This document shows positions 7,399 through 38,999 of a DNA stretch of 64,000 nucleotides, in pieces. A program made the translations under genes and the position numbers. Where the stretch lies: NCBI GenBank assembly GCA_041580775.1, contig JBFGDF010000001.1, forward strand, positions 22,219 through 86,218. The letters run 5' to 3'. Below the pieces are notes generated by a model. It saw only the letters and a program-made list of their open reading frames with translations, ran no database searches and was not told the DNA's origin. Numbering within the stretch: position 1 is the stretch's first letter; each line of letters starts with the position of its first letter. This DNA is from Gemmatimonadales bacterium (lineage in GTDB: Bacteria; Gemmatimonadota; Gemmatimonadetes; Gemmatimonadales; GWC2-71-9).

Positions 7399-7536
7399 GG
7401 CAGCCTCCGACGTGAGGGGTGGGCTCGCACCGGCGGCGCGGGATCCCGCGATCCGCCAGGGCGCGATCCTACGGAGGCCGCGTCAAGCAGCCGTCAAGTC
7501 ACGGGCGGAGGCTCGGATAGGCAGGCGCGCTTTGCG

Positions 7537-9078
7537 TCACTGGGCGCGCCGCGGGTAGTCCTGTGCACCCTCGAGCGACCAGCGGAGGAAGGCGCGCAGA
7601 TCGTCGTTTGTGCGGGCCAGATCAGCCTTGCGCAGATACATCATGTGCCCGCTCTCGTACCACGCGAACCGGAATCGATCGCGGAATTCTCCGCCCGGCT
7701 GGAGATGCGAGATGGTGTACACGGCGCCGTAGTAGTCCGTCGCCGCGTCGTAGTAGCCGCCCTGGATCAGCACCTTGAGATAGGGGTTGTTCCGCATCGC
7801 CTGGCGCAGCATGTCGCCCACACTCACCGATGCCTCGCGGTTCCAGGGCCGAACGTCACCCCACACGTTGTACGCGAGATCGGGGTTGTAGCGCAGCTCC
7901 TCACGCAGGTAGCGGTTCACCGCGTTGCTGAACGCGCCATTCCAATCCGCGATGGCCGGATCGTACTCGGGGTTCTCCCCGGCGGCGTCCCGATCGATGC
8001 CGAGATAGCGGCTGTCCAGCCGGCCCACCGTGAGGCGCCGGTCGCGCAGCAGCTCCTTCCAGAAACGGCGCGGCTCCAGCCGGAGATTCGCCGCCAGCAC
8101 GTACGCCGGCGTCACGCCGGTGTAGCGGGCCACCCGGCCGGCCACGGCGGTCCGCTCGGCGTCACTCAGCCGATCGCCCCGCACGAGCGCCTGGAGGTAG
8201 TCGCCGAGCGCGAAGGTCTCGACCTCGGCCAGGACGTCCGTCAACGCACGTGCCTGGAGCTCGGGCCCCAACTGGCGGTGATACCACGCCGTCGCGGCGG
8301 CCTGCGGCAGGAACGTGGCGTGCGACACGTCGGGCCCGGACTCCACGTCGAGACCGGTCATGGACACCAGAATGATGCCGTTGAGGTAGATCTGGTGTCG
8401 GCTCTGCAGGTAGCCGGCGAGCCCCGATGCGCGGGTCGTGCCGTAGCTCTCGCCGATCAGGAACTTGGGCGACATCCAGCGGTTCTTCCGCACGATGTAC
8501 AGCCGGATGAATTCGGCCACCGACTGGATGTCGGCCATTTTGCCGTGGTACGCGTGGAGGTCCTCGCCTTCCACCATCCGGCTGAAGCCGGTGGCGATGG
8601 GATCGATGTAGACGATGTCGGCGGCGTCGAGAATCGAGTGCGGGTTGTCTTCCAGCCCGCCGGGCGGGCGCAGCGCGAACCCTTCGTCGTCGTACACGAC
8701 GCGGCGCGGCCCCGTGTACCCCAGGTGCATCCAGACCGACGCCGTGCCGGGTCCGCCGTTGAACGAGAAGATCAGAGGTCGCGTGCTCGGGTCCGAGACC
8801 CCGGCTCGCGTGTAGGCCACGTAAAACATCTTCGCCCGGACCCTCCCGTCCTCCCGGATCGGCAGCCACCCGGCTTCGGCGGTGTAGTTCACCATCTGCC
8901 CGTTGATGCGCTTGGCATGCTGCGTGACGACCGGCTCCGCGGGCAGGAGCTCCGCCTCGGCACCCGCTTTGCCGGCTGCCTCCTGGCCCGCACCGCGCGG
9001 TGCCTGCGCGGCGGACGGCGCGACGGCAAAGCCAACCATCAGCATCGACAGGACAGACAACAGACCTCGGACGCGCAT
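7537..9078 (-). CDS. Secreted serine carboxypeptidase (peptidase S10-like)
   Basis: FSFNGGPGTASVWMHLG and GESYGTTRA blocks. Signal peptide from the internal start MRVRGLLSVLSMLMVGFAVAPSAAQA (ATG 9078). AGGAGGAA lies 4 nt upstream. Confidence 0.7.
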   Translation of the reverse strand: MRVRGLLSVLSMLMVGFAVAPSAAQAPRGAGQEAAGKAGAEAELLPAEPVVTQHAKRINGQMVNYTAEAGWLPIREDGRVRAKMFYVAYTRAGVSDPSTRPLIFSFNGGPGTASVWMHLGYTGPRRVVYDDEGFALRPPGGLEDNPHSILDAADIVYIDPIATGFSRMVEGEDLHAYHGKMADIQSVAEFIRLYIVRKNRWMSPKFLIGESYGTTRASGLAGYLQSRHQIYLNGIILVSMTGLDVESGPDVSHATFLPQAAATAWYHRQLGPELQARALTDVLAEVETFALGDYLQALVRGDRLSDAERTAVAGRVARYTGVTPAYVLAANLRLEPRRFWKELLRDRRLTVGRLDSRYLGIDRDAAGENPEYDPAIADWNGAFSNAVNRYLREELRYNPDLAYNVWGDVRPWNREASVSVGDMLRQAMRNNPYLKVLIQGGYYDAATDYYGAVYTISHLQPGGEFRDRFRFAWYESGHMMYLRKADLARTNDDLRAFLRWSLEGAQDYPRRAQ

Positions 9079-11145: not shown

Positions 11146-12228
11146 CTAGATCACGAGCTGGAGTCTCCGCACCACCGGCTCCTCCGCGGCCTCCGGCTCC
11201 CCGCGCTCGGCCTGGCGCATCAGCCGCCAGATCTCGCGGCCCAGCACGTCCGCATCCGTGGACATGAACTGCTCGCCGCCGAACGCCCGGATCTGCCGGG
11301 TCTGCGTCTCCAGAATCTCCGCATCCTGACGGAAGATCTTGAGCGCGATCGGTTGGAGCACCGGTTTCACCAGCCAGCCGGGGATTCGCACCCGGAGACT
11401 GATCACGGCATAGAGGCGGGTGACAAAATCGGTGACGGGCGTGCACAGCGACGTCACCAGCACGTGGTTCTCGGGACCCAACCGGTACTCGACCTGCGCG
11501 ATGGACGGGAGGATGAAACGGTCGACGTGTTCCACGGTGCCGCCACTGGGCGACAGCACCCGACCGGCCAGCCCCGGCGGGCGCGGCTCCCCCAGGTACT
11601 CCGCCTCCACCCGATCGGCCCACCGCCGCACTTCGACGTCGATGGGGTTGGGCTCACCCTTGCCGCGGAAGAGACCCTTGTGCAGGAACGCCGTATGCGG
11701 GACGTCGAGCGCGTTTTCGATCGTCGCGTGCACCGAGGCCTCGACCTCAAAGGTGCGGACGACCGTGGTATACGTCGGGTCGGACGCGAGGGGGAGCGGG
11801 AACGGTTCAGTGGTCGGCTCCACGGCGGGCCGGGGATACACCCAGACGAAGCCTCCGCGCTCGCGCACCGGGTACGCCTCGACCCGACGGCCCTTGGCCT
11901 CGCCCGTGTCCCGCAGGCCGGGCACCAGCCGGCAGGCGCCGGTCACATCGAACTGCCAGCCGTGGTAACAGCACTCCAAGTGCCCGGACGCGACCACGCG
12001 ACCCAACGACAGCTGGACGTTGCGGTGGGGGCAGCGGTCCAGCAGCGCGCCCACGCCGCCGCCAGCATCGCGAAACAGGACGAGCGGCACGCCGAGCACC
12101 ACGCGCCGCAGCGGCGTGGCGCGCAACTCCGTGGACCGGCACGCCACATACCAATAGTCCGGCAGCTGCGCCACCGACACGTGCCCGCGGGCGGTCGGCG
12201 GCGCGAGATGCGGCTCCAGCTCAGCCAT
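11146..12228 (-). CDS. Rieske [2Fe-2S] non-heme iron oxygenase (PaO/KshA-like)
   Basis: Rieske motif CPHRNVQLS...CCYHGWQF and mononuclear-iron motif DVPHTAFLH. Real start is ATG 12228 (MAELEPHL). The 916-aa ORF-track extension upstream is antisense read-through of the kinase gene. Confidence 0.8.
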   Translation of the reverse strand: MAELEPHLAPPTARGHVSVAQLPDYWYVACRSTELRATPLRRVVLGVPLVLFRDAGGGVGALLDRCPHRNVQLSLGRVVASGHLECCYHGWQFDVTGACRLVPGLRDTGEAKGRRVEAYPVRERGGFVWVYPRPAVEPTTEPFPLPLASDPTYTTVVRTFEVEASVHATIENALDVPHTAFLHKGLFRGKGEPNPIDVEVRRWADRVEAEYLGEPRPPGLAGRVLSPSGGTVEHVDRFILPSIAQVEYRLGPENHVLVTSLCTPVTDFVTRLYAVISLRVRIPGWLVKPVLQPIALKIFRQDAEILETQTRQIRAFGGEQFMSTDADVLGREIWRLMRQAERGEPEAAEEPVVRRLQLVI

Positions 12229-26822: not shown

Positions 26823-27284
26823 TTATCGCACGGGTCCTGGCGCCCGCCGCAGTCCGCGCAACTGCTGCTGCTGCTCGGCGGACAGCACGTTCTTGATGCG
26901 GAGCAGAGCCGCAAGGTGGGTGCGCTTGATCTGCCGCTCGACCTCGAGCACGCGATCCACCTGCGCCAGCACCGCGGCCTCCTGCGCAGCGGGCTGACCC
27001 AGCAGCTCAGCAAGCTTCTGGTGCTCCTCCTGCATCTTCCACTGGAAGTCCACCACCTGGGCCTGTAACGCTTTGACGGCGTCGGTGATCGTCGTGCGCT
27101 GCTCGGCGGTCAGGCCGATGGCGCGTTGGTGCTGCATCACTAATTCCGGCGGAAATAGCGCGTCTTCCATTGGATCGGGACGCTGCGGCTGTGGCGCGTG
27201 CGCCGGCTGGCCCGGCGTCTGGGCCATGAGCGGGCCGGGCCCCAGCAGGCCGAGCAGCAGCACGAGGGGAAGTCGTGACCTCAT
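26823..27284 (-). CDS. Periplasmic Spy/CpxP-family (LTXXQ) protein
   Basis: Signal peptide MRSRLPLVLLLGLLGPGPLMAQ. LTAEQ and LSAEQ motifs. ATGA overlap with the anti-sigma stop. Confidence 0.7.
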   Translation of the reverse strand: MRSRLPLVLLLGLLGPGPLMAQTPGQPAHAPQPQRPDPMEDALFPPELVMQHQRAIGLTAEQRTTITDAVKALQAQVVDFQWKMQEEHQKLAELLGQPAAQEAAVLAQVDRVLEVERQIKRTHLAALLRIKNVLSAEQQQQLRGLRRAPGPVR

Positions 27285-27664
27285 GAGGGTGTCCTCCGGA
27301 CGGTGTCGTCGGTGAGTCCAGGCGCGTCGGTGACCGTGTCACCGGCGCCCGCGGTGAAGCTGGGCACGTCCCGCATTAGCGCGAGGCCGGGCGTCTCGAG
27401 CAGAACATCGGTGGGCGCCGTCCAGGTGACGGCGGCCAGGTCAATGGGGTACGGCACGGCGGCGCGTGGACGCAGCGTCCACCAGGCGAGCCCAGCCCCG
27501 GCAAGGAGTACCACCGCCGCCGCGGCGGCGAGCGGGCGCACGGCGACACGCCGTCTCCCGGCGACGGGCGGGACGGCGAACGGCGGTGTGGTAGCGGCCT
27601 CTTCGGCAGCGAGCGCGGCGAACCGTGCCCGCAGCACCGCGTCAGCGGGATCGCGCTCAGGCAT
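27281..27664 (-). CDS. Single-pass anti-sigma factor (putative)
   Basis: 127 aa from ATG 27664 with one TM segment (PLAAAAAVVLLAGAGLAWWTL). 8-nt overlap with the ECF sigma gene. Assigned by position only. Confidence 0.5.
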   Translation of the reverse strand: MPERDPADAVLRARFAALAAEEAATTPPFAVPPVAGRRRVAVRPLAAAAAVVLLAGAGLAWWTLRPRAAVPYPIDLAAVTWTAPTDVLLETPGLALMRDVPSFTAGAGDTVTDAPGLTDDTVRRTPS

Positions 27665-28178
27665 TGGTCCCCTCCCCCAGCAGGGCGCGCAGGCGCGTCT
27701 TGCCGCGCTCGTAATGGGTCCGTGCCGTCCCCACCGATACCCGGAGAACGGCGGCGGCCTCGGCGATCGTGAGGTCCTGATAGAACACGAGGTGGAGCAC
27801 CTCCCGCTGCCGGGCGGGCAGCTGGCGCAGCGCCGCGACGAGGCGCGCCGACGCTTCTGCTCGCGCCATCGCGGTAGCGGGATCCAGGCCGGGCGCGTGC
27901 GCGCCCCCCCGCCCATCGAGGCTCGCGAGCGGCAGCAACCGGCGGACCGTCCGGCGACGCCGCTCCTCGGCCGCGGTCCGCCGGATCACGCCGAACAGCC
28001 ACGTGCGGAACGCCGAACGCCCTGCATAGCGGGCGCGGCCGTCGATGATCTTCAGGTACGCCGTCTGCAACACGTCCTCCGCCATCGTGCGGTCCCACCG
28101 GCAGCAGGCGAGCGCCCAGCCGAAGGCCGCGCGATGGTGCTGCGTGAGTTCCGCTTCCAGGTCGCTCCGGGTCATCAC
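27657..28178 (-). CDS. ECF (group IV) sigma-70 factor
   Basis: Region 2 is EDVLQTAYLKI...FRTWLFGVIRRTA. Region 4 is LPARQREVLHLVFYQDLTIAEAAAVLRVSVGTARTHYERGK. Confidence 0.85.
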   Translation of the reverse strand: MMTRSDLEAELTQHHRAAFGWALACCRWDRTMAEDVLQTAYLKIIDGRARYAGRSAFRTWLFGVIRRTAAEERRRRTVRRLLPLASLDGRGGAHAPGLDPATAMARAEASARLVAALRQLPARQREVLHLVFYQDLTIAEAAAVLRVSVGTARTHYERGKTRLRALLGEGTNA

Positions 28179-28248: not shown

Positions 28249-28581
28249 ATGGGCATCCTGCTGCTGCTGCTCGGGCTCCTGGCCGCAGGCTCCGGGGTCG
28301 TGAAACTCACATCGCGGGCCCGGCACCATCATGGGGTGTCGCCGCTTGCGTGGATCGAGGGCGGGGTCGGGACGATCGTGGTGCTGGCCTCCGGGGTGGG
28401 GCTCGGGCGGCTGCGGCCACTCGCCTGGACCGTCGTGGGGATCACGGCGCTCGTGGTCGTGGTGTCGTCCGCCGCGTACGTTCGGCGGGGACGGCAGGCG
28501 CGGGAGCGGCGGAGAACGTCGGAAGAAGATCGCCTGCGGCGGTACCTCGGGGGCAAATGGGAACGGTCCCCGCCCCGCTAG
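28249..28581 (+). CDS. Small membrane protein (110 aa, three hydrophobic segments, basic tail)
   Basis: MGILLLLLGLLAAGSGVV..., WIEGGVGTIVVLASGVGL..., WTVVGITALVVVVSSAAYV, then an RRGRQARERRR tail. Confidence 0.55.
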   Translation: MGILLLLLGLLAAGSGVVKLTSRARHHHGVSPLAWIEGGVGTIVVLASGVGLGRLRPLAWTVVGITALVVVVSSAAYVRRGRQARERRRTSEEDRLRRYLGGKWERSPPR

Positions 28582-29129
28582 ATGTCGAGGGGCGATCCGA
28601 AGGTGTCGTCGAACTGCCGGTCTCGGGCTCGCTCCTGCGCCTGCTGCTGGCGCAGGATGTACATGCCAAACGAGCTCGCCTGCCCCACGTTGAATCCATA
28701 GGCCGCGACCTCAAACTGGTCCCCGACGTCGAGCCGGGTTCGACCCCTGTGCACATCCGGCTGCTCGATTCCGTCCCGCCAGTCCCCCCAATGCACCAGC
28801 TCGTGAAGCACAATGGCCTCCAGCGCCAGCTGATTCCGCCGGATGCGCGGAGCCCGCTCGTACGCTCGAGCGAGTGAACGGGAGATCATCACCGCCGTTG
28901 GGGCCTGGGGAACAAATAGCCCGAGCTTCTTCAAGCGCACGATACGAACGAACGGACCTTCCCCCCAAGTCAGGACCCGGGTCGCCTCGTGTGGCGTGAA
29001 CTGGCCGTAACGCAGGAACGCGCGCCAGATCTGTCCTCCATCACGACGAGGGATCGTGTCCCGCGCCTGACGCAGCCAGTGAGCGGTCTGCGGGTAGACC
29101 TGCGCCTGTAACGGATACATGCGGGCCAT
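28578..29129 (-). CDS. Small HExxH zincin-like protein, no signal peptide
   Basis: The only recognisable motif is AIVLHELVHWGDW. Start is ATG 29129 (MARMYPLQ) with GGAG 6 nt upstream. Confidence 0.55.
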   Translation of the reverse strand: MARMYPLQAQVYPQTAHWLRQARDTIPRRDGGQIWRAFLRYGQFTPHEATRVLTWGEGPFVRIVRLKKLGLFVPQAPTAVMISRSLARAYERAPRIRRNQLALEAIVLHELVHWGDWRDGIEQPDVHRGRTRLDVGDQFEVAAYGFNVGQASSFGMYILRQQQAQERARDRQFDDTFGSPLDI

Positions 29130-29737
29130 GGGTCGCTCCGGTTTCAGCAGTTGCGCGCACGGTGCACGAACGACTACCGCATCTGCTGCAAACATGGCCC
29201 GGGGTCACGGGGCTGCAAGTCGACGACGGATGTGGTCGTCGTCAGCCGCACCGCGCGGAATCGTGCCTGGCCTACGCGTTCGGCACGCCTCGCCGAAGCC
29301 CGCTGGTCCCAACGGCCAGTGTGACGCCGAACACCAAAACGGCCAGCGGCTGCACGCCCCATCGCCGCGCAATGTGCCACGCCTGTTTGCCAACTGCCGT
29401 GCCGTGCATGCGGCACTCCATCCTCCCCGGCCCCGGTGTTGTACGGTGGCTCACACTGGCAAGTAACGCTCGCCGCTCGCGCAACAACGAGGCCGTCTCG
29501 GGCGCGTGACGGAAGCGCTTGCCGACGCGACGGTTGGCTCGCTCCGCTCGCTGGGCCGGGAGGGACGATCCGACCCTGCGTGGCCGAAACGACTAGGACG
29601 GCACGCCTCTTGTTCCTTATTCGTACGGTACCGCCGCGCAGGGTTGCAGCGGCGAACAGCGACGATACGGGCGCTCCCCTTTTCGGGTAGCCGCCCCGCG
29701 ACGGTAGACGCGGGACCCTGGGGTCCAGGAGTGACAC

Positions 29738-31102
29738 GTGCCCCGACTCTGTGTGGTGAGACTCTCCGAGGCGTTCGAGCGCTTCTGGCACGACGTGGCG
29801 GCCGACCTTGCCGTCACGCTGCGAGGCGCCCGGGCCAACGGCGCCGTCACGCCCGAGCGCGACACGATCGCCATCGTGCTGGCGGCCGGCGGTGCGGAGC
29901 GCGATGCGTTACGGTGGCTCCAGAATCACGACGTCCCGGCGACGATCCCGACACTCGTGGTGGGCGCGGATCCGTGCCGTCGGCTTGCGATGCAGATGGT
30001 GCGGTATGGCGCCGGCGACTACTTCGCCCTGCCCGAAGACGTCGAGGTCCTGCGGAGCGCGCTCGCCACGGCGCTGACCCGGAGTCGGGAACGGGGGGAC
30101 GAGTCCGTCGTCGGCGACGGACCGGACGCATTCGGCGCGATTGTCGGTGGGAGTCCACTGATGCGAACCGAGATCGAACGGGCAGCCACGCTGGCCCGTC
30201 ACCGCAACGCATCGGCCCTGATCCTGGGCGATACCGGGACGGGGAAGGAACTGCTCGCCCGGGCGATCCATGCGGCCAGCCCCCGCGCCGCAGCGCCGTT
30301 CGTGGCCGTGAACTGCTCGGCACTCCCGGAACACTTGGTCGAATCCGAGCTGTTCGGCCACGAGCGTGGCGCGTTCACCGACGCCCACGCCGCCAAACCC
30401 GGTCTGTTCGAGGTGGCAAACGCCGGCTCGCTGTTTCTCGACGAGATCGGTGACATTCCGCTGCTGCTGCAGGCCAAACTGCTGCGCGCGCTGGATGACA
30501 AGGAGATTCGTCGAGTCGGCGGCACGAAGTCGCGGGCCGTGGACGTGCGCATCCTCGCGGCCACCAACGAGGATCTGGACCGCTGCGTGCGCGAGGGGAC
30601 GTTCCGAGAAGACCTCTACTTCCGACTGAGCACGGTCGTCTTCCGGCTGCCGCCGCTCCGGGATCGGGGGGACGACGTGCTCCTCATTACGTCCGCCTTG
30701 CTGGAACGCCTCGCGTCCGAGCACGAGGTCCCCGTCCCACCGCTGACGGACGAGGTGCGGCACCGGCTGCTCACGCACCCCTGGCCGGGGAACGTGCGTG
30801 AACTCAAGAATGCCATCGAACGCGCGCTGTTGCTGTCGCCCCCGGGGCGCCTGAATGCCGCGGAAATCCTGCCCGAGACGGCGCCTCCGCTCCAGAACGG
30901 TGGACCCATCCCCTTCCCCGCCCCACTCGCCGATATCACGTGCGCCGCCGCGCGCGCGACGGTGGAGTGGTGCCATGGGAACCGCGCCGAGTCGGCCCGC
31001 CGCCTGGGCATTTCGCCTCGCCGGCTCCGGCGGCTCCTCGCGGGCGCCGACGGTGAAGGCATCGAGGACGATCAGCCCGAGCCCGAGACCGTTTCGGCCT
31101 GA
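29738..31102 (+). CDS. Sigma-54-type AAA+ transcriptional activator (NtrC family) with degenerate receiver-like N-domain and C-terminal Fis-type HTH
   Basis: Walker A GDTGTGKE, ESELFGHERGAFTDA, Walker B LFLDEIGD, and C-terminal NRAESARRLGISPRRLRRLL. AGGAG lies 6 nt upstream of GTG 29738. Palindrome GGACCC-TG-GGGTCC at 29713-29726. Confidence 0.85.
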   Translation: MPRLCVVRLSEAFERFWHDVAADLAVTLRGARANGAVTPERDTIAIVLAAGGAERDALRWLQNHDVPATIPTLVVGADPCRRLAMQMVRYGAGDYFALPEDVEVLRSALATALTRSRERGDESVVGDGPDAFGAIVGGSPLMRTEIERAATLARHRNASALILGDTGTGKELLARAIHAASPRAAAPFVAVNCSALPEHLVESELFGHERGAFTDAHAAKPGLFEVANAGSLFLDEIGDIPLLLQAKLLRALDDKEIRRVGGTKSRAVDVRILAATNEDLDRCVREGTFREDLYFRLSTVVFRLPPLRDRGDDVLLITSALLERLASEHEVPVPPLTDEVRHRLLTHPWPGNVRELKNAIERALLLSPPGRLNAAEILPETAPPLQNGGPIPFPAPLADITCAAARATVEWCHGNRAESARRLGISPRRLRRLLAGADGEGIEDDQPEPETVSA

Positions 31103-31368
31103 TCCTCCCCAGCGGCAGTCCCAACCGAGCGCGACGCGTGGTCGATTCGACCACGCCCATGGTCAACATGACCCTGCGGCCCCCGCCGTCCTGCGCCCGC
31201 CCGTCGCCGTAACTCCAAGTCCCCAAAACACCTGCCTCGACCGAGCCGGCGCGGAACGCTTCGTGCCACCTCGCTGCATCACACAATTGCGGCGTGGCGT
31301 GGGTCACCAACCTCGCGGATCGACGCGGGAAGCCGCAGCCACCGGACAGAAAGGGAAACGACACACGT

Positions 31369-32070
31369 ATGTCTCGACACTGGATGCTCGGATCGGTGGC
31401 TGTTGCCGCGGTGCTCCTGGCCTGTGCGGACTCGGCGGCCCCGTCGGCCGACGGGCTGCCGTCACTCGGCCGCGCGCCGCAGCAGGTGCGCTGGGCGGAT
31501 GGCCCACCGGCGCTGCGGGCGCTGGGGCTCACCCCCACGACCCTGATCGGTGGTGACCCCGTGGTGGAAGGACTCTCTTTCTCCGCCACCAGCCTGGAGC
31601 TCGACGCCTACACCGTCTCGTTCTGGGCGGTCGCGGGTCAGGACCGCGGCGTCCAGATCAACTGGCTGGATGACGGGACGTGGCAGCCGTACCTGATCTT
31701 CGACGTGCCCGAGGACGCTCTCAAGGCCATGCCCGACGGGCGACCGATGGTACCCGGCGATTCGGTGCTGATCACCGTCACGATCGATACGCTGGACATG
31801 GTGGCGCACTTCGAGCCCACCGGGCTCGCCTTCAAGTCCAACGAACCCGCGCGGCTGCAGATGTGGTACGCGGGGGCGCGGGGCGACTTGAACGGCGACA
31901 GCGGTGCGGACGCGACCGACTCGGCCATCGAGCTCACGGCCCTCGGCCTCTGGTATCAGGAAACGACCGCAGACCCGTGGAACCGACTCGACGCGGTCGC
32001 ACAGTCCGTGAGCGACGACTGGTTCCGCGCCGCGCTCGAGCACTTCTCCGGCTACGCCATTGCGTGGTGA
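31369..32070 (+). CDS. Lipoprotein, paralog A of a three-member tandem family (unknown function)
   Basis: Signal peptide with lipobox MSRHWMLGSVAVAAVLLAC. Shared blocks AYTVSFWAV, PDGRPMVPGDSVLITVTID and a C-terminal EHFSGYAIAW. Asp-rich GDLNGDSGADATD loop. Confidence 0.75.
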   Translation: MSRHWMLGSVAVAAVLLACADSAAPSADGLPSLGRAPQQVRWADGPPALRALGLTPTTLIGGDPVVEGLSFSATSLELDAYTVSFWAVAGQDRGVQINWLDDGTWQPYLIFDVPEDALKAMPDGRPMVPGDSVLITVTIDTLDMVAHFEPTGLAFKSNEPARLQMWYAGARGDLNGDSGADATDSAIELTALGLWYQETTADPWNRLDAVAQSVSDDWFRAALEHFSGYAIAW

Positions 32071-32086
32071 AGGAACGGGGACTGCC

Positions 32087-32701
32087 ATGACACGGCGCGC
32101 ATTCCGACGCATCGGGCTGGCACTGATCGCGGGCGTAGGGGGCTGCGCAGACCTCGGCGTGCCTCCCGACGGGACCTCGAGTGGCGAGATCGCCCTTTTC
32201 GGGGGACGCCACGCACCCGTGGTCGTCGCCCTGGCGGACAGCGCCCCGCGCCTCGAGGCCTACGCCGCAGCGTTCTGGGCGGTACAGGGTCGCCGCACGA
32301 CGTTCCGGCTGCACTACCTCGCGCCGGACCCGGAGCGGAGCGGCGGAGAGTTGCAGAAGTACCTCGTGCTCACGATCCCGGCCTTCACGCAGATCGTCCA
32401 CCCTGACGGCACGCCGCTCGTCGCGGGCGACTCGCTCCTGATCACCGTGACGGTGGACGGACTGGACCTCGCCGTGGAGCTCGGGCCGGACGGCGCCATG
32501 TTCGCCGGCGACCCCCTGCAGCTCGCGCTGTGGCTGGTCTACGCGGACCTGAATCCTCAACTCGGCGCGAGCGACCTTCGGATTTGGTATCGGCCGCCCG
32601 GCCCGGACGCGTGGACACCGCAACCGACCAGAGTGATCGCGGGCGGCAAAGCGCTGATCGGCGACCTGCGGCACTTCTCGAATTATGCCGTCGCCTACTG
32701 A
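32087..32701 (+). CDS. Lipoprotein, paralog B (divergent, lacks the Asp-rich loop)
   Basis: MTRRAFRRIGLALIAGVGGC lipobox. AYAAAFWAV, PDGTPLVAGDSLLITVTVD and a C-terminal RHFSNYAVAY. Confidence 0.7.
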   Translation: MTRRAFRRIGLALIAGVGGCADLGVPPDGTSSGEIALFGGRHAPVVVALADSAPRLEAYAAAFWAVQGRRTTFRLHYLAPDPERSGGELQKYLVLTIPAFTQIVHPDGTPLVAGDSLLITVTVDGLDLAVELGPDGAMFAGDPLQLALWLVYADLNPQLGASDLRIWYRPPGPDAWTPQPTRVIAGGKALIGDLRHFSNYAVAY

Positions 32702-32735
32702 TGCCTGGAACCGACGACGAACTGAGGGCCATTCG

Positions 32736-33467
32736 ATGCCACGACGCCCATTCCTGACCTCGATTCTGGTCGGCGCCGCGCTCCTGAGCTGCGGCGAGAG
32801 CGCCGGACCCCGGCTGGACGGACCGTCGCTGAGCCGGCACCCGCGGTACCTGGCCTGGGGCGGAGACGCGCCCCTCGTGATTCGCGCGATCGGCACGAGC
32901 GTGGCCACCCGCGGGACGGGCACCGGCACGGGCAGCGGCGAGCTGCCGCACGGATTCTCGGCCTCCCTGCAATTGAGCGCGTACCAGGTCGGCTTCTGGG
33001 CCGTGAAAGGCGAAGCACGGGGTGTGCAGATCGACTATGAGACGTGCGTTGCTTGGGAGGGGGAGCTCTGCACCGCCCGGACCTGGCATCCCTATCTGCT
33101 GCTTGACGTGCCGGCCAGCGCGCTGGCGCAGTGGCCAAACGGCAGCGCGATCGCCACCGGGGACTCCGTCTTCATCGAGCTGACCGTCGATCCGCAGAGC
33201 ATGGTCGTCGAGCTCGAGCCGTCCGGTCTGCGGTTCGGCGCGGGCGGGGCCGCACTCCAGATGTACTACACCGGCGCTCACGGGGATTACGACGGCGATG
33301 GTGACGCCGACACCGTCGATGGCGACATCGAGCGGCAGTGGATGGGGATGTTCTACCAGGCCGCGCCGACGGAGCCATGGGTGGCCATGGGCAGCCAGCA
33401 CTCGGTCTCCGGCCGCTGGTTCACGGCCTGGCTCGAGCACTTTTCGGGCTACGCCATCGCGTGGTAG
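32736..33467 (+). CDS. Lipoprotein, paralog C
   Basis: MPRRPFLTSILVGAALLSC lipobox. AYQVGFWAV, PNGSAIATGDSVFIELTVD, GDYDGDGDADTVDGD and a C-terminal EHFSGYAIAW identical to paralog A. Confidence 0.75.
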   Translation: MPRRPFLTSILVGAALLSCGESAGPRLDGPSLSRHPRYLAWGGDAPLVIRAIGTSVATRGTGTGTGSGELPHGFSASLQLSAYQVGFWAVKGEARGVQIDYETCVAWEGELCTARTWHPYLLLDVPASALAQWPNGSAIATGDSVFIELTVDPQSMVVELEPSGLRFGAGGAALQMYYTGAHGDYDGDGDADTVDGDIERQWMGMFYQAAPTEPWVAMGSQHSVSGRWFTAWLEHFSGYAIAW

Positions 33468-33560
33468 CACGGCCGATCATGCCGACGCGACCCCTGCGCC
33501 CGACGCGGTTTCAGAACTTCGCGATCGCCTGTCGTCGCGGTCACTGCTGAGGATGGACGC

Positions 33561-35561
33561 ATGACCACAGCTACGCTCTCCCCCGTGGACCATGAGGCGG
33601 CGTTCCGGCTCGCCGAGGCCGGTCGGCACGCGGAGCTGCTGACCTTCCTCCAGAGCTGGCCGGTGGAGACCGTGGAGGCGTCGCCGGCCCTCGCGCTGCT
33701 GTGCGGCACGGCGCACGCGCGTCTCGGGCGGCATGCCCTTGGGTTGCGCTGGGTGGAAACGGCCCTCAGCGGGGCGCGCCGTGAGGGCGACGGTGCGATC
33801 GAACGCCGTGCGCTGAACGCGCGGGGCGCCATCTCCCTGGTGACCGGTCGGGTGGACGAGGGTGCCGACTATTTCACGCAAGGCCTGCTCGCCGCCAGCC
33901 GGGACAACGACCTGGCCGGGATTGGCCGGTGTGCCAGCAATATCGGCGTGATCAACAACCTGCAGGGCCGGCAGGCCGAGGCAATCTCTTCGTACGCCAT
34001 GGCGGTGGCCGCGTACGCGAGCGCTGGGATGCACGGGGGCGTGGCCGAGTGTCACCACAACCTCAGCATCACCTATCGGGAACAGGACCATCTGGACCGG
34101 GCATTGGCCGAGGCACTGCGGGCGGCCGACGCCGCCGAGGCCTCGGGGGACGCCGGACTGCAGGCCCTCACGCTGCGCGGTCGCGCCGAGGTACGCGTGG
34201 CTCGGCAGGAATGGACGGCGGCGCGCCGGGAGATCCAGCTCGCGCTGGAGCGGCAACGGGCCCTCGGCGACCGGCTCCAGGAAGCCGAGAGCCTGCGCAT
34301 CCTGGCCGCCGTGCTGGCGGCCGAGGGGCAGCTCGCCGACGCGGAAGCCACCCTGCGGGACGTAATCGCGCGCGCCGAGGAGATGGAGCGCCCCCAACTC
34401 GTGGCGGAAGCAACGCGTGACCTAGCGCTGTTGCTGCACAAGCAGGGTCGGGACCGGGAGGCACGAGACGCCGCTCGCAAGGCCAAGCGGATCTTCGCGC
34501 AATTGGGCGCCGTCTACGAGCTGCGGAAGCTGGCGGAGCACGAGTGGGAGGACGAGTTCGCCGCGGAGCTGCGTCAGGTGCTTGCGCCGCTTCACGCCGC
34601 CCAGCGGATGGCGGACAGCGGACATTACGCCGAACTGGTGCGGTACCTGAGCGTGCGTCCGTACGACGAGCTCGAGCGCTCCCCGACCCTGTCGCTCCTG
34701 CGGGCCGTGGGACACGCGCGGCTGGGCCAGACGGACGCCGCGCGGCAGTGGGCACTGATCGCGCTGACGCGCGCTCGGGCGCGTGGCGACCGGGCGGTCG
34801 AGGTGCGGGCGCTGAACGTGAGCGGTGCCATCGCGCTGGAGATGGGCGGTGTCGACGAGGCCGTCCACTTCTTCGATCGGGCCCGGGAAGAAGCGATGCT
34901 GGAGAACGACCTTTCGACCGTGGGGCGCGCGTCGAACAACCTGGGTGTGATCGCCAACATGCAGGGCGACTACGGGCGGGCGGTCGGCGCATATACGATG
35001 GCCATCGCCGCGTATCAGCACGCACACGCCGAGCGCGGGGTCGCCGAGTCGCAGCACAATCTGGGGATTACGTTCCGCGATCAGGGGAAGCTCACCAACG
35101 CGCTGCAGGCCGCGGACGAGGCGATTCGCGGTGCCACCCGGGCGGGCGATGCCAGTCTGAAGGCGCAGGCGCTGGCCGGCCGCGCCGAGATCCGGGTCGT
35201 GCAGGGCGATGCGCGCGTGGCGCGCCGCGAGGCGGAGCGGGCGGCCGAGGCGCATCGGACGCTGAACGATCCAGTCCGCGAAGCGGAGGACAAGCGGATC
35301 CTCGCCAATGCCATGGCCGCCAGCGGGCAAATCGACGAGGCCATGGCGCTGCTGCGCGAGGTGACCGAACGGGCGCGCGTGTACACCCGGCCGCTGCTGG
35401 TGGCCACCGCCCAACGCGACCTGGCTCTCCTGCTGGCCCGCACGGGGGCGCGCGGCGAGGCGCGGGACGTCGCAGAGCAGGCGCGAGCGACGCTGCTCGA
35501 GCTGGGCGCCGCGGTCGAGGCCCGCAAGCTCGAGCACTTCCTCGGCGGCTCGGCCGCGTGA
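33561..35561 (+). CDS. TPR-like all-helical protein made of two colinear ~333-aa halves
   Basis: 666 aa. The two halves align by eye, for example NIGVINNLQGRQAEAISSYAMAVAAY...ECHHNLSITYREQ against NLGVIANMQGDYGRAVGAYTMAIAAY...ESQHNLGITFRDQ. GAGGA lies 7 nt upstream of the ATG. Confidence 0.75.
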   Translation: MTTATLSPVDHEAAFRLAEAGRHAELLTFLQSWPVETVEASPALALLCGTAHARLGRHALGLRWVETALSGARREGDGAIERRALNARGAISLVTGRVDEGADYFTQGLLAASRDNDLAGIGRCASNIGVINNLQGRQAEAISSYAMAVAAYASAGMHGGVAECHHNLSITYREQDHLDRALAEALRAADAAEASGDAGLQALTLRGRAEVRVARQEWTAARREIQLALERQRALGDRLQEAESLRILAAVLAAEGQLADAEATLRDVIARAEEMERPQLVAEATRDLALLLHKQGRDREARDAARKAKRIFAQLGAVYELRKLAEHEWEDEFAAELRQVLAPLHAAQRMADSGHYAELVRYLSVRPYDELERSPTLSLLRAVGHARLGQTDAARQWALIALTRARARGDRAVEVRALNVSGAIALEMGGVDEAVHFFDRAREEAMLENDLSTVGRASNNLGVIANMQGDYGRAVGAYTMAIAAYQHAHAERGVAESQHNLGITFRDQGKLTNALQAADEAIRGATRAGDASLKAQALAGRAEIRVVQGDARVARREAERAAEAHRTLNDPVREAEDKRILANAMAASGQIDEAMALLREVTERARVYTRPLLVATAQRDLALLLARTGARGEARDVAEQARATLLELGAAVEARKLEHFLGGSAA

Positions 35562-35577
35562 TCCGCGGGTGAAGGCT

Positions 35578-35610
35578 CCCCACGCCCCGGGCCGTCGCCG
35601 GGGCGCGGGG
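35578..35610. terminator. GC-rich hairpin between convergent genes
   Basis: CCCCACGCCCCGG (35578-35590), 7-nt loop, CCGGGGCGCGGGG (35598-35610). 13 bp with one mismatch and no T-tract. Confidence 0.35.
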
Positions 35611-35650
35611 CGCCGCGCCGCAACCGTCCTTCCCGCGTGAAGTCCGGGGC

Positions 35651-36757
35651 CTACGCCCGCAGCGCCGCCAGCAGATTCTGGCGCCACGCCGTGCGCCCGG
35701 GCGGGGTGCCCGGCCAGCGCCACCGCAGGTACTGGCGGGGGGGCGCCATCACCTCGCGCACCAGCCGGCTCAGCCGCGCCTTATCCGCAAGCAAGTACCG
35801 CCGCCAGGCGAGGGAGCGGGTCACCGTCACGTGCTGAGGGCCGGTGGTACCGTGCCGCGCCGCGCGGACGAGCCAGTCCCGGAGCCGAAGCTCGCGCAGC
35901 GCGGCGCGGTCACGTCGGTCGCTGGGGCCGAGACGGACACCGCGCAGGGGATAGCGGCGCAGATCGTCCACCAGTACGCGGCCGACGACGCGGAGCGCTC
36001 GCTCCACCCCGAGCACGCGGGCGAGATATGACAGCTCCTGCCCCGCTTCGCGCGGGATCGCGTCCCACAGCAGCGCGAAGTCGAGCAGGCCGCGCACGTG
36101 CAGCATGTCGTGACGCACGAGGTGATGCAGCACGACCGCAGCGTGGTACTCGTCCGGCAACACCGGCAGGCCCTGCTCCGTCCGGACCCGCGCCCACACC
36201 GGCGGCGGCAAGGCCACCTCCTCGTCCGGCAGCAGGGTCCCGAGCGATTCGAGTCCCCAGTGCAAGTCGAGCAGCAGCTCGGTATGGTCGTTCGCGACAC
36301 TCGTGTCGGTGCGCGCCAGGGTGACCCCCGGCCGACCCGTCGCGGGCCCCCAACGCCGGGCGTCGCCGAGCTCTCCGTAGCCGACGGCGTGCAGGGCGGT
36401 GAGCGCGCGGGTGCGGTCGGCGCGATCGATCAGCAGGTCGATGTCGGCGAGGTGGCGCTCGTCAATGCGGTAAAACCGTCCGATCAGGGCGATCCCCTTG
36501 AAGAAGCAGTGCCGCACGTCCGCCTCGGTCAGCGCGCGGGACACCTGGCGCGCCTCCTTGCGGAGGCTCGCCCCCTGCTGGAGCCAGGGACTCGGCGGCA
36601 GCTCGCCGTCGTCGTGGAGGTGCCGCTCGATCCAGCGACGCACGCCGAACCGGCCGGCCAACTCCAGCGCGGGATCCGGGCCTCGCAGTTTGAGCCGCTG
36701 GGCCACTTCGCCAAGGACGTCGTGCAACCGCTCGTACACGGCAGTCGGGGATGGCAT
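35651..36757 (-). CDS. Uncharacterised nucleotidyltransferase-family protein (NTP_transf_5-like)
   Basis: 368 aa from ATG 36757. The FFKGIALIGRFY...RHLADIDLLIDRAD...LLDLHWGL pattern is as I remember for PF14907-type proteins. Confidence 0.55.
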   Translation of the reverse strand: MPSPTAVYERLHDVLGEVAQRLKLRGPDPALELAGRFGVRRWIERHLHDDGELPPSPWLQQGASLRKEARQVSRALTEADVRHCFFKGIALIGRFYRIDERHLADIDLLIDRADRTRALTALHAVGYGELGDARRWGPATGRPGVTLARTDTSVANDHTELLLDLHWGLESLGTLLPDEEVALPPPVWARVRTEQGLPVLPDEYHAAVVLHHLVRHDMLHVRGLLDFALLWDAIPREAGQELSYLARVLGVERALRVVGRVLVDDLRRYPLRGVRLGPSDRRDRAALRELRLRDWLVRAARHGTTGPQHVTVTRSLAWRRYLLADKARLSRLVREVMAPPRQYLRWRWPGTPPGRTAWRQNLLAALRA

Positions 36758-36832
36758 CCATCTCACGCGGGTGGGGGTGAATCGAGTCGCGCACAACATG
36801 CACACTCGGCGCGTGAGGCTGTGTGACGGAGG

Positions 36833-37246: not shown

Positions 37247-38656
37247 TCAGTCAGTCGACGGCGCTCCGAATCTGCGGTAGGGATGTTGCCGCAGATGAAC
37301 GCAAATCTCGCGGACCGTCCCGTCCGGATTCAGGACCCTGAACCCATGCGGTGGCAACTCCTCCAGGCGTGCCCGGCCCGCATGCTGAATCCACTTCGCC
37401 TGGTAGGATTCCACCATGCTGTCGCCCCACGTTTGGTTCAACCTGAAGTCCACCGGCCTCCCGCCGCCCTCGAGGTACTCGTGCAGCGTGTTGGCCTGGG
37501 CCTCCGTCAGCGGCTCGGTGCGCAGGCCACTCGGGGGATTGGCGGGGAGCGGGCTTGCCGAGGCCGCACCGGGCGGGCGGGGGCCCGGACCGATACCGGG
37601 CAACGTCGCTCCGCTGCGCGCTGTCGGGAGCATCCGGACGGTTACGGGTCGCTCGCCACTACCCACGATTCGCCTCACGTGATCAGCCAACGTGCGTGCA
37701 CGCACGCGTAAGGCCGCCAGCAAGGCCCGCACGTGAGCGAGTACCCGGCCATACGCGGCGCCAATCGTGGTGACGCTACGGCCCGCGGCACGCGCCGCGG
37801 CGCTGGCACCGGGCCTCCCGGCCGCGCGAGCCGCGCGACCGACGCCCCGCTGGAGGAGTTCCTGGATGATCAGGAGTAGAATCTCCTCGATCAGCTGGTC
37901 GCGGGACACATACGTCCAATGATCGCGCACGGCCTCCGTGAAGTCCGCACGGAAGTCGGGGTCGCGCTCGAGTTCGAGGTACTCAGGAGTCGCAGGCACG
38001 GCCGACCGCCACCGACCGGTACCACGCTGGGTGATGTAGCCGGCGGCCCGCGCCTGGTCGAATTGCTCGATGAACTCCCGGTCCCTGCCGGAGATTGGGT
38101 CTGGTGCGTCGCCACCGAACACCCCTCGCGCGCCCGGTGCCGTTTCGAGTCGCGGGAAATCGTCGGGGTTGTAACGCTGGGCCAGAAACATGAGGGTGGC
38201 GTGGAGTCGCCCCAAGGCGCGGGCGGCCCTTCGCAGTTCCATGGACAGGCGGTGCCGCTCCATCCCGTCGGCTGTGAAGTGGCCGGCCCGATCCTGTGGA
38301 TAGCGCGGATGGGCCTCGCCCCACATGCTCCTCGCACCCAGCGGCGGACCGACTCGGCCCCCAGGCTGCGGACGGAACATCAGAAACGGCGGTGGGCCAA
38401 GGGGCGGCAGGTCTCGATCCGACCCCGCGTCGACATCGGGAGCCGAGCCGTAGATGACCTCGGTGTTCGGGATCGCGACGACGCCCTCGGGCTGAAGATA
38501 GTCTCCTTGGACCCACCCCCCGGCCCGGAGCTTCCTCCACCCCCCTTGGGACTCGGCGACTTCGACTCGCACCCCCCGATCGAGGTTGCGCAGCCACCTG
38601 AATTGCCGGCCGGGTCCGGAGCGGACGGAGACGGCACGCTTGACGATGTAGGCCAT
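37247..38656 (-). CDS. Protein with N-terminal bacterial SH3 domain and an unrecognised ~400-aa remainder
   Basis: Start is ATG 38656 (MAYIVKRAVSVRSGPGRQFRWLRNLDRGVRVEVAESQGGWRKL, an SH3b-like pattern). GGGGAGG lies 7 nt upstream. No signal peptide. Confidence 0.65.
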   Translation of the reverse strand: MAYIVKRAVSVRSGPGRQFRWLRNLDRGVRVEVAESQGGWRKLRAGGWVQGDYLQPEGVVAIPNTEVIYGSAPDVDAGSDRDLPPLGPPPFLMFRPQPGGRVGPPLGARSMWGEAHPRYPQDRAGHFTADGMERHRLSMELRRAARALGRLHATLMFLAQRYNPDDFPRLETAPGARGVFGGDAPDPISGRDREFIEQFDQARAAGYITQRGTGRWRSAVPATPEYLELERDPDFRADFTEAVRDHWTYVSRDQLIEEILLLIIQELLQRGVGRAARAAGRPGASAAARAAGRSVTTIGAAYGRVLAHVRALLAALRVRARTLADHVRRIVGSGERPVTVRMLPTARSGATLPGIGPGPRPPGAASASPLPANPPSGLRTEPLTEAQANTLHEYLEGGGRPVDFRLNQTWGDSMVESYQAKWIQHAGRARLEELPPHGFRVLNPDGTVREICVHLRQHPYRRFGAPSTD

Positions 38657-38999
38657 GGTTGGGCCTCCCCGTGGACCCCGGCAGAGAGCCGTAGGCTTCC
38701 TAGGGCCCTGGAGTACGGAGCGGGCATGCGCGAAGATCGCGGAACGGGCGCGTTCGGCGCGCCGCCGACATTCTCGGTGGTGGTGCCGAGAGCCGAATGC
38801 GGTCTCGCTGGCAGGCCAGGTCGCGAAACAACGGCGGATGGGCGTGCCTCGGCGAGACAGCCGGCAGCTCTCAAGGCGACAGGCGAACATGGCCCCAGCG
38901 GGTGGCGCCCGCAAGCCCAAGAGCGCAGGGGGGCGAACCGGTGCCTCTGCGGCCCTCGGGGGTTGGCCAATGCCATCGCGATGTACTACATCAGACCAT

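Follow-up and report, generated by a model that had tools for sequence, protein, structure and literature searches.

The DNA analysed here, called the window, is a stretch of 64,000 nucleotides from contig JBFGDF010000001.1 of a Gemmatimonadales bacterium, and its positions 29738-35561 hold a block of genes for a sigma-54 enhancer-binding protein (bEBP), three lipoproteins (Lpp1, Lpp2 and Lpp3) and a protein of tetratricopeptide repeats (TPR). The best overall explanation of this block, held with evenly balanced confidence, is that it represents an envelope-signalling module conserved in Gemmatimonadota and organised in two transcription units, one for the bEBP and the other for the lipoproteins and the TPR protein. 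An original prediction made on this DNA had described five co-directional genes in one block, which was borne out by the following genes:

29738-31102, plus strand: bEBP gene, 454 aa (from the list of open reading frames and Pfam)
31369-32070, plus strand: Lpp1 gene, 233 aa, lipoprotein of the Ca-loop class
32087-32701, plus strand: Lpp2 gene, 204 aa, lipoprotein paralogue without the Ca loop
32736-33467, plus strand: Lpp3 gene, 243 aa, lipoprotein paralogue with the Ca loop
33561-35561, plus strand: TPR gene, 666 aa, cytoplasmic protein with a tandem duplication

The gaps between these genes are, in order, 266, 16, 34 and 93 nt. No hairpins were found in the 16-, 34- and 93-nt gaps and no structured RNA signal in the Lpp3-TPR gap, and the GC content remains at about 70% across the block with no compositional break. 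We infer from the sequence that Lpp1-Lpp2-Lpp3-TPR are carried on one transcript, with the operon boundaries set accordingly.

Conservation of the block was assessed in two ways. A profile of the three lipoproteins, run in a word-indexed protein search, returned 39 relatives, all of them from Gemmatimonadota and all unnamed or annotated as 'hypothetical', while a scan of one genome per species with a DNA pattern back-translated from GDSVLITVT gave 111 loci (numbered with an L below), about half of them in Gemmatimonadota, the open reading frames of which were all screened with a lipoprotein hidden Markov model (HMM) and with the bEBP and TPR sequences of the window. About 60 genomes of Gemmatimonadota species and metagenome contigs contain the block, and in them the order of bEBP, one to four lipoproteins and TPR recurs amid unrelated flanking genes, so that the linkage of activator, lipoprotein and TPR protein, which comparative genomics had been proposed to check, does recur in the phylum. 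Loci L001-L003 represent a close relative with the same flanks as the window, L004 is a metagenome-assembled genome with a single lipoprotein and a single-unit TPR protein of 319 aa, and L006 displays four small lipoprotein genes, a 701-aa TPR protein and a TPR-HD protein; the activator/lipoprotein/TPR order is kept in L008-L010, and L007 is a lipoprotein-only array. Adjacency of the TPR gene could be tested in 59 loci extending at least 600 nt beyond the last lipoprotein gene, and in 57 of them a TPR gene lies directly 3' of the lipoprotein gene or genes, often after a gap of merely 5-20 nt. For the bEBP, 43 loci with at least 1.6 kb upstream could be tested: the gene lies directly upstream of the lipoprotein gene(s) in 23 (4 of which also have a divergent gene for a protein of about 210 aa), only the divergent ~210-aa protein is present in 15, and neither is found in 5. 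The stop codon of the bEBP gene overlaps the lipoprotein start in a few loci, consequently all three gene types form one unit there. The constant pair of the module is thus the lipoprotein and the TPR protein, and the bEBP is its regulator in the branch of the window and in many others. Because the bEBP is not adjacent in those 15/43 loci, the TPR protein cannot be merely the partner of the activator.

The evidence for the regulatory part of the module comes from the 266-nt region between the bEBP and Lpp1 genes, where two upstream activating sequences (UAS) precede a candidate sigma-54 promoter:

31139-31153: UAS palindrome 1, TGGTCGATTCGACCA (extended form GCGTGGTCGATTCGACCACGC, 31135-31155)
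31160-31173: UAS palindrome 2, TGGTCAACATGACC, its centre 21 bp from that of palindrome 1
31252-31267, plus strand: -24/-12 element, CGGAACGCTTCGTGCC, roughly 100 nt ahead of the Lpp1 gene

In 14 or more divergent loci, the element YGGAACG-N4-CTGCY (GG-N10-GC) is conserved 50-110 nt ahead of the start codon of the first lipoprotein gene (counterparts are TGGAACACTTCCTGCT in L006, TGGAACGATTCCTGCT in L008, TGGAACGCTTCCTGCT in L049 and TGGAACGGGTTCTGCG in L013). The -24/-12 element is preceded, at a distance of about 75-95 nt, by two palindromes (TGGTC-N5-GACC) about 21 bp apart. Their sequence and spacing are likewise conserved in at least 14 divergent loci, and the pair is found at equal distance from the promoter in L006, L008, L019, L049, L070, L105, L084, L065 and L007, with GGGAC-N5-GTCCC/GACCC as variants elsewhere; within the 64-kb window, TGGTC-N5-GACC occurs at those two sites only. 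No sigma-70-like sites were found in 28900-35900. Read from these sequences, the layout is the standard anatomy of an enhancer-dependent promoter, and the Fis-type helix-turn-helix (HTH) of the bEBP is predicted to bind the cognate UAS next to it. It is therefore very probable, as the original prediction held, that the bEBP drives the lipoprotein genes, acting at the two palindromes on the sigma-54 promoter of the Lpp-Lpp-Lpp-TPR operon. The canonical pattern TGGCAC-N5-TTGC was also tried as a scan of the window and was dropped, its matches being at chance level; the promoter is visible only by cross-locus comparison. The shorter pattern GGAACG-N5-TGC has 4 exact matches in the window against 0.9 expected, of which two, at 8310-8323 and 11685-11698 (plus strand), could be other sigma-54 promoters, and the fourth, at 32072, overlaps the ribosome-binding region of Lpp2.

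The loci with the ~210-aa protein have another type of regulatory region. This protein is missing from the window and gave zero matches in Pfam; its family has an HTH-like N-terminal segment (ISLSYRQFAAALG..VTEAAIKKW) and is always divergent, either from the Lpp-TPR pair or from the bEBP. It is present in L016, L018, L024, L031, L037, L042, L095, L099, L100, L102, L109, L111, L114 and L118, and also in L006, L008 and L105. In the intergenic region of the HTH-type loci, one GGGAC-N6-GTCC palindrome stands after TTGACA-N17-TACTTT, a promoter layout that points to a version of the module transcribed with sigma-70.

The bEBP itself was assigned the following domains:

aa 1 to about 125: degenerate receiver; aa 135-300: AAA+ sigma-54 interaction domain; then a lid and a Fis-type HTH (aa ~411-432)

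Pfam recognised Sigma54_activat (PF00158, E=4e-65, aa 135-300) and AAA_lid_14 (PF25601), and HTH_8 weakly (E=7e-4, under its gathering score), while all NCBIfam equivalogs stayed far under their cut-offs. Over its full length, the AAA+ domain can be aligned with NifA, ZraR, FleQ and NtrC1 of the PDB (E from 1e-66 to 1e-73) and is a canonical sigma-54 interaction domain with Walker motifs. Its sigma-54 contact loop is GAFTDA, and the loop reads GAFTDA, GSFTDA, GAFTGA, GAFTNA or GAFTSA in linked orthologues, the Phe (Tyr in one) and the Thr being conserved across the linked bEBPs. One linked paralogue (L027, 4706-5953, minus strand; gene order bEBP-TPR-Lpp x3-TPR) has no GAFTGA loop, reads ..DSVGGG.. 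instead, and may be degenerate or sigma-54-independent. For the N-terminal 125 residues, no Response_reg match was obtained in Pfam with single sequences, and a profile of 20 orthologues matched 80 chains of solved receivers at E<=1, the best being 8svz_A with E=2.7e-6. In this alignment Ala stands at the phospho-Asp, Gly at the Thr/Ser and Leu at the Lys, as conserved in the 20 orthologues, and the substitutes are kept as the family-specific motifs 'AAGGxE' and 'DYFALP'. The activator without a phospho-acceptor was thus rightly predicted: by its aligned sequence, lacking the Asp, Thr and Lys of a receiver, it is not a phosphorylatable NtrC-class response regulator. Since a receiver without Asp, Thr and Lys implies control by a protein or a ligand and not by a histidine kinase, the bEBP is presumably an orphan pseudo-receiver activator controlled by a partner or a ligand. 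No kinase gene adjoins the bEBP gene or is conserved nearby, and the Ser/Thr kinase once suggested as its controller has no conserved counterpart in the module.

The products of the second unit start with the three lipoproteins, which are paralogous with 37-48% mutual identity. Each begins with basic residues and a hydrophobic stretch, followed by a lipobox Cys at aa 16-20 (LLAC in Lpp1, with Cys19, GGC in Lpp2 and LLSC in Lpp3), as predicted for a lipoprotein. The Cys is at least 90% conserved in an alignment of 41 sequences, and lipoboxes were detected in 144/176 and 74/115 members of the family, whose signals have median lengths of 18-22 aa. Tat export was considered and dropped, for an RR pair is present in just ~30-40% of the signal peptides, which are of Sec length. 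As predicted, the family is an unrecognised one, no family being returned by Pfam, NCBIfam or PADLOC. An exhaustive HMM search placed its size at 1,255 or more 50%-identity cluster representatives at E<=0.001, with 398 at E<=1e-30. To these is added a sister subfamily of ~170-200-aa lipoproteins, homologous by hhalign (98.9%, E=2e-17) and comprising at least 1,465 90%-identity clusters, all unnamed; its members are the first gene in some loci and elsewhere lie just upstream of a TPR-HD gene. An AlphaFold run on a 3-sequence input (predicted local distance difference test, pLDDT, 34) was not used. The AlphaFold2 model of Lpp1 (pLDDT 85.3, predicted template modelling score 0.79) is mainly beta, and the segment 'GDS(L)', tried as a lipase motif, was dropped since it lies in a beta strand of this model.

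The paralogues, for which the original prediction's reading as interchangeable variants is tentative, divide into two or more conserved classes according to whether they carry a dockerin-like Ca loop, of the pattern D-x-[ND]-x-D-G-x-x-D-x-x-D followed by a helix, which the Lpp2-type paralogues lack. The loops are as follows:

31885-31920: Ca loop of Lpp1, DLNGDSGADATD (loop and helix, aa 173-190); the loop of Lpp3 is DYDGDGDADTVD

The loop gave weak profile matches to many solved dockerins (E=0.005-6 over ~20 residues), and Pfam Dockerin_1 reached E=0.0067 in one relative only. With a single loop and not two tandem repeats (PF00404), the lipoproteins are not type I dockerins: they resemble dockerin or EF-hand modules in the single Ca2+ loop plus helix, but here this loop is inserted in a beta domain and is absent from the Lpp2-type, whereas dockerins have a duplicated 22-residue module, and no cohesin partner is known.

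Conservation within the family is highest at its C-terminus, [H/G]-F-[S/T/C]-x-Y-A-[V/I]-[S/A]-[W/Y]-COOH, which in the window is found at:

32041-32049: HFS of Lpp1, with the tail SGYAIAW at 32047-32067
32678-32698: tail of Lpp2, from HF-SNYAVAY
33444-33464: tail of Lpp3, from HF-SGYAIAW

Among 180 family representatives, the Phe is invariant and is preceded by H in 125, G in 45 and S in 6; it is followed by S in 145, T in 27 and C in 7, that is by one of these three in 179/180 and never by Ala or Gly. The further positions are G/N/R/E, Y/F, A, V/I/L, S/A and a final W/Y, and the stretch from S/T/C to the end measures exactly 7 aa in 167/180. In the model of Lpp1, H225-F226-S227 is located in the turn between the last strands (218-223 and 228-232), so that by both sequence and model an H-hydrophobic-S/T/C motif occupies the turn before the last strand. 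This arrangement resembles known self-cleaving sites. The GPS of the GAIN domains of adhesion GPCRs consists of H-X-S/T, then a hydrophilic residue, then the Stachel core F/Y-A/G-V/I-L-M/L/A (PMC13470171), and the Stachel peptide of latrophilin starts TNFAVLM (PMC6137404). For bacterial MAIN domains, a 2026 preprint by Brogan and Rudner reports a cut at HF|S within a beta turn, which Ser-to-Ala abolishes and Ser-to-Thr retains and after which the fragments remain associated (bioRxiv 10.64898/2026.05.12.724683). Nup98 and PIDD have HFS and CARD8 and NLRP1 have SFS, with the buried Phe and the Ser essential and the preceding His/Ser nearly dispensable (PMC3210808), and ZU5, GPS and Nup98 have been united as one autopeptidase superfamily that also occurs in bacterial surface proteins (Zhang et al. 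2012, PMC3482391). The lipoprotein tail agrees with the GPS/Stachel-type pattern at seven of nine positions, and its S/T/C interchange is as expected of a nucleophile. Pfam ZU5 was the sole match, sub-threshold, for two members of the small subfamily (E=0.057 and 0.11). With hhalign, a Nup98 sequence was matched over the HFSKYGL segment only (E=0.014), and an ankyrin ZU5 sequence gave nothing.

On their sequence, the lipoproteins are thus tied to the GAIN/MAIN/ZU5/Nup98 class at the level of the motif and not as superfamily members. They share with these domains an H-hydrophobic-S/T(/C) turn that joins the last two strands of a beta domain outside the cytoplasm and precedes a hydrophilic residue and [F/Y]-A-[V/I]; the Phe is invariant as in Nup98, PIDD and the HFS of MAIN, and the His is replaceable as in the SFS of CARD8/NLRP1. 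They differ in being small (~200-245 aa), with an N-terminal lipid anchor and no profile or Foldseek similarity beyond the motif, whereas GAIN/MAIN proteins are anchored by a C-terminal transmembrane (TM) segment, a sortase signal or an S-layer, and MAIN proteins are large with the anchor C-terminal to the cleavage site. That the lipoproteins self-cleave between Phe and Ser is, by motif and model, a plausible hypothesis that falls a little on the doubtful side. With the lipid anchor at the N-terminus and the protein ending on the Stachel-like strand, a heptapeptide and not an ectodomain would be set free by cleavage. The lipoproteins of HTH-type loci show an extra ~10 residues beyond the tail (e.g. 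HFCEYAIA-ALLELAVSW) that resemble a second copy of it; such tail-extended proteins are found in L016, L020, L023, L024, L030, L031, L037, L042, L095, L099, L102, L109, L111 and L118.

The same lipoproteins could be read without any cleavage, as the structural or adhesive Ca2+-binding products of a plain envelope operon, in which the C-terminus would be the last strand or a ligand for a periplasmic PDZ or tail-specific protease and the TPR protein a generic scaffold, or an anti-activator co-expressed to give negative feedback. Lipoproteins and other exterior components are common targets of sigma-54 regulons (PMC3162934). No match to autoproteolytic domains was obtained by fold or profile, generic TPR_12-type repeats make up the TPR protein, and the dockerin-like Ca loop, together with a Big_2 fusion in one relative, suits an adhesive or structural role. 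Yet folding alone poorly explains why S/T/C follows an invariant, buried-type Phe seven residues from the end in 179/180 proteins, and this explanation leaves unaccounted for the TPR gene 3' of the lipoprotein in 57/59 loci, which holds even with a different regulator. It is considered rather unlikely.

The TPR protein consists of two halves of ~333 aa each (33561-34559 and 34560-35558) which are 47% identical (E=6e-76), and no signal peptide was found in any of more than 50 orthologues; from its sequence it is cytoplasmic, and the duplicated cytoplasmic TPR protein of the original prediction was confirmed. Pfam identified TPR_12 (E=3e-34) and, sub-threshold, TPR_MalT, and the protein contains nothing but TPR repeats of the generic TPR_12 / MalT / AfsR-sensor kind. 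TPR domains often clamp C-terminal peptides, and chaperones of the SicA/IpgC type co-activate transcription. The TPR protein might accordingly be a chaperone or export sensor that binds the hydrophobic lipoprotein tail before export, in the way of the class II TPR chaperones of type III secretion, and, when free of cargo, co-regulates the bEBP, coupling export flux to transcription. The invariant Lpp-TPR adjacency, with gaps often of 5-20 nt, and the cytoplasmic location of the TPR protein, which would require no transmembrane component, are consistent with this. Nevertheless, the lipoprotein signals are ordinary, short and of the Sec type (median 18-22 aa), so that no dedicated chaperone is expected, the TPR proteins measure 333-666 aa against ~160 aa for type III chaperones, and the S/T/C position is left unexplained, which makes such a sensor highly improbable.

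Two further gene types recur beside the module. Orphan SBP_bac_5 (OppA-class) orthologues, with mutual E-values of 1e-115 to 1e-195, are found in 8 loci (L004, L006, L013, L032, L044, L073, L084 and L096) at varying positions and orientations and with no adjoining permease genes. An HD-GYP-type (HD_5) gene is near the module in eleven related loci and is fused to a TPR array in those scanned (TPR-HD_5 in L006, 10350-11903, L019, L049, L052, L070, L073, 5658-7196, L108 and L115), L004 having a stand-alone HD_5 gene (7304-8254). Four loci have a small Lpp-like gene directly upstream of the TPR-HD gene, forming a second Lpp-TPR pair. The fusions indicate an input role for this type of TPR array, and the recurrent HD_5 linkage hints at a cyclic-dinucleotide output in sister lineages.

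These neighbours bear on a third alternative, peptide signalling of the RRNPP kind. The self-cleaved heptapeptide would be released, for instance upon damage to the envelope or at high cell density, taken up by an Opp-type transporter through the linked family-5 solute-binding protein (SBP) and bound by the TPR protein, and the bEBP (elsewhere the HTH protein or the HD-GYP enzyme) would be released or activated, giving positive feedback. TPR domains are the peptide receptors of the Rap/NprR/PlcR systems, and Rap proteins act on receiver domains. The 7-mer with a free C-terminus and S/T/C after an invariant Phe, the invariant neighbouring cytoplasmic TPR protein, the SBP_bac_5 orthologues and the use of this TPR type as input domain in TPR-HD-GYP fusions would all suit such a scheme, and the dependence of the operon promoter on the regulator makes autoinduction possible. 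It is weakened by the tail itself, which is near-invariant family-wide whereas quorum-sensing peptides usually diversify, and which a core beta strand would explain equally well. In addition, neither an SBP_bac_5 nor an HD-GYP gene is present in the 64-kb window, the SBP genes elsewhere are without adjoining permease genes, Lpp and TPR units differ in copy number, and the cleavage remains hypothetical. On balance this alternative is improbable. The known RRNPP systems (Rap-Phr, NprR-NprX, PlcR-PapR; Bacillota) are alike in having a cytoplasmic TPR protein beside an exported putative source of a 5-8-residue peptide, an Opp-type binding protein linked at some loci, and a receiver-like target (Rap on Spo0F). 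The module differs from them in its diderm host, its near-invariant putative peptide and its predicted sigma-54 activator output; its TPR protein, fused to neither HTH nor phosphatase, neighbours folded lipoproteins of ~200-245 aa (~230 aa against ~40-aa pro-peptides) and is not an RRNPP member.

The envelope-signalling module favoured here would operate as follows. The orphan bEBP of the first unit, with its non-phosphorylatable receiver under the control of a protein or ligand, would bind the two palindromes and remodel sigma-54 RNA polymerase, and the second unit, the sigma-54-dependent operon Lpp1-Lpp2-Lpp3-TPR, would then be expressed. The lipoproteins would be exported and lipid-anchored, presenting a mainly beta domain with one Ca2+ loop of the dockerin/EF-hand type, and the HF|S site would be cleaved by an N-O acyl shift of the GAIN/MAIN/Nup98 type. 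The last strand would thereby become a heptapeptide (SGYAIAW from Lpp1 and Lpp3, SNYAVAY from Lpp2), held non-covalently until strain or unfolding of the domain. The TPR protein would be the cytoplasmic receiver, most likely exerting feedback on the bEBP via the degenerate receiver domain in a manner resembling PspA-PspF, HrpV-HrpS, FliX-FlbD or Rap-Spo0F. Binding of the bEBP to the palindromes and any role of the peptide are predicted from sequence, and we infer contact between TPR protein and bEBP, and control of the latter by the former, by analogy with those systems. A bolder version, in which the lipoproteins are self-cleaving 'Stachel' carriers whose heptapeptide is imported via the linked Opp-type protein upon strain or at high density and is read by the TPR protein, gating the bEBP, the HTH regulator or the HD-GYP enzyme, is judged quite improbable; were it true, it would constitute peptide signalling from a GAIN-like site with no membrane receptor, extending the tethered-agonist principle of adhesion GPCRs to bacteria in a soluble form.

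Several observations weigh against the proposed module. Foldseek comparison of the Lpp1 model with the PDB and viral structures gave no meaningful match (best E=0.095, TM score 0.21) and no GAIN, ZU5 or Nup98 fold, and the Pfam GPS/GAIN/ZU5 and PDB profile searches gave nothing significant; therefore it is a 9-residue motif, together with a predicted turn, that connects the lipoproteins with self-cleaving domains, and one quarter of the family has Gly in place of the His of this motif. On the regulatory side, the loop of the window's bEBP is GAFTDA and not GAFTGA, the -12 region of its promoter is GTGC and not TTGC, and an rpoN gene is absent from the 64-kb window, so that its presence in the genome is assumed; the search for rpoN in related loci found none either. 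Furthermore, the module encodes no membrane protein able to relay a signal from an exported lipoprotein to the cytoplasmic TPR protein, and since about 1/3 of loci have no adjacent bEBP, feedback on the bEBP cannot be the whole function of the TPR protein.

Two known regulatory systems are close to the module in other respects. NtrC/PspF-type activators with an operon-encoded anti-activator (PspF-PspA, HrpRS-HrpV, FlbD-FliX, FleQ-FleN) are alike in the AAA+ domain, the GAFTGA-type loop, the Fis-type HTH, the tandem palindromic UAS about 90 bp upstream of a -24/-12 promoter, the control without phosphorylation and the soluble partner encoded in the controlled operon; the module departs from them in a distinctive pseudo-receiver ('AAGGxE', 'DYFALP'), in having a large TPR protein as candidate partner and in its new lipoprotein cargo. 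The PrsK-PrsR-PrsT set of PEP-CTERM/exosortase systems also combines a sigma-54 activator, a TPR protein and envelope proteins sharing a C-terminal motif, and its TIGR02915 is among the best matches of the bEBP. The score of 303.8 bits against a cut-off of 502.6 nonetheless places the bEBP outside PrsR, the block has no PEP-CTERM motif, TM tail, exosortase or histidine kinase, and the TPR protein is here cytoplasmic and not a lipoprotein.

The surroundings of the block contain the following features:

29196-29737: leader of ~540 nt, non-coding, between the divergent Tox-MPTase3 gene and the bEBP gene
35578-35611: GC-rich hairpin, unstranded, between the convergent TPR and NTP_transf_5 genes
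35651-36805, minus strand: gene for an NTP_transf_5 'uncharacterised nucleotidyltransferase', converging on the TPR gene and common to L001 only

The leader corresponds to the long non-coding DNA described on the left of the block and presumably holds the bEBP's own promoter; a weak -24/-12-like site, CGGCACGCCTCTTGT, is located in it at 29599-29613. Compared with L001, it is 88% identical overall and ~95% over its first ~330 nt, while the Lpp1 protein is 86% identical to its L001 orthologue, that is less than the leader DNA, and constraint on the leader in this comparison exceeds that on the neighbouring proteins. The leader gave zero matches in Rfam, no RNA structure above background and no conserved open reading frame, the sole small TM-like one being rejected because a 1-nt indel in L001 breaks it. 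On the right, the convergent hairpin that had been described is present, but it has no T-run, and its folding (z=-0.53 against shuffles of this 76% GC region) is at chance level. A bidirectional terminator is possible there, and the hairpin by itself is no evidence for one. Beyond the NTP_transf_5 gene, a 557-aa open reading frame (37247-38920, minus strand) has a weak, sub-threshold SH3 match. On the left side, at 28578-29195 and 26823-28178 (both minus strand), there is a stand-alone Tox-MPTase3 metallopeptidase homologue (Pfam E=3e-19), without a toxin-delivery domain ahead of it, beside a gene set with an extracytoplasmic function (ECF) sigma factor, its neighbour that is probably an anti-sigma factor, and Metal_resist (LTXXQ-type). 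Being common to the close relative L001 only, the Tox-MPTase3/ECF/Metal_resist set is outside the conserved module. A toxin-immunity or defence system was likewise rejected, as the Tox-MPTase3 neighbour is restricted to close relatives and PADLOC returned generic AAA+ and TPR models only.

Taken together, the regulatory frame of the module (orphan bEBP, UAS and -24/-12 promoter) is of an already known kind and agrees with the general view that sigma-54 controls the cell exterior (PMC3162934), whereas the lipoprotein superfamily with its GPS/Stachel-like C-terminus, its near-obligate TPR partner and the conserved pseudo-receiver appear undescribed in the libraries and literature searched. Gemmatimonadota are abundant in soils and almost unstudied genetically, and the module defines in them a very large lipoprotein superfamily without annotation, the C-terminus of which is like a GAIN cleavage site plus agonist core, as well as a family of sigma-54 activators with a conserved pseudo-receiver. 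The near-obligate pairing of an exported lipoprotein with a cytoplasmic TPR protein calls for a mechanism linking two compartments. If no cleavage takes place, the module would still be a well-defined sigma-54 regulon with a presumed function in the envelope. If self-cleavage is true, bacterial GAIN-like (MAIN) domains would gain an architecture that releases a peptide as opposed to an ectodomain, and the promoter, UAS, activator and peptide would offer a direct handle on envelope signalling in this phylum.

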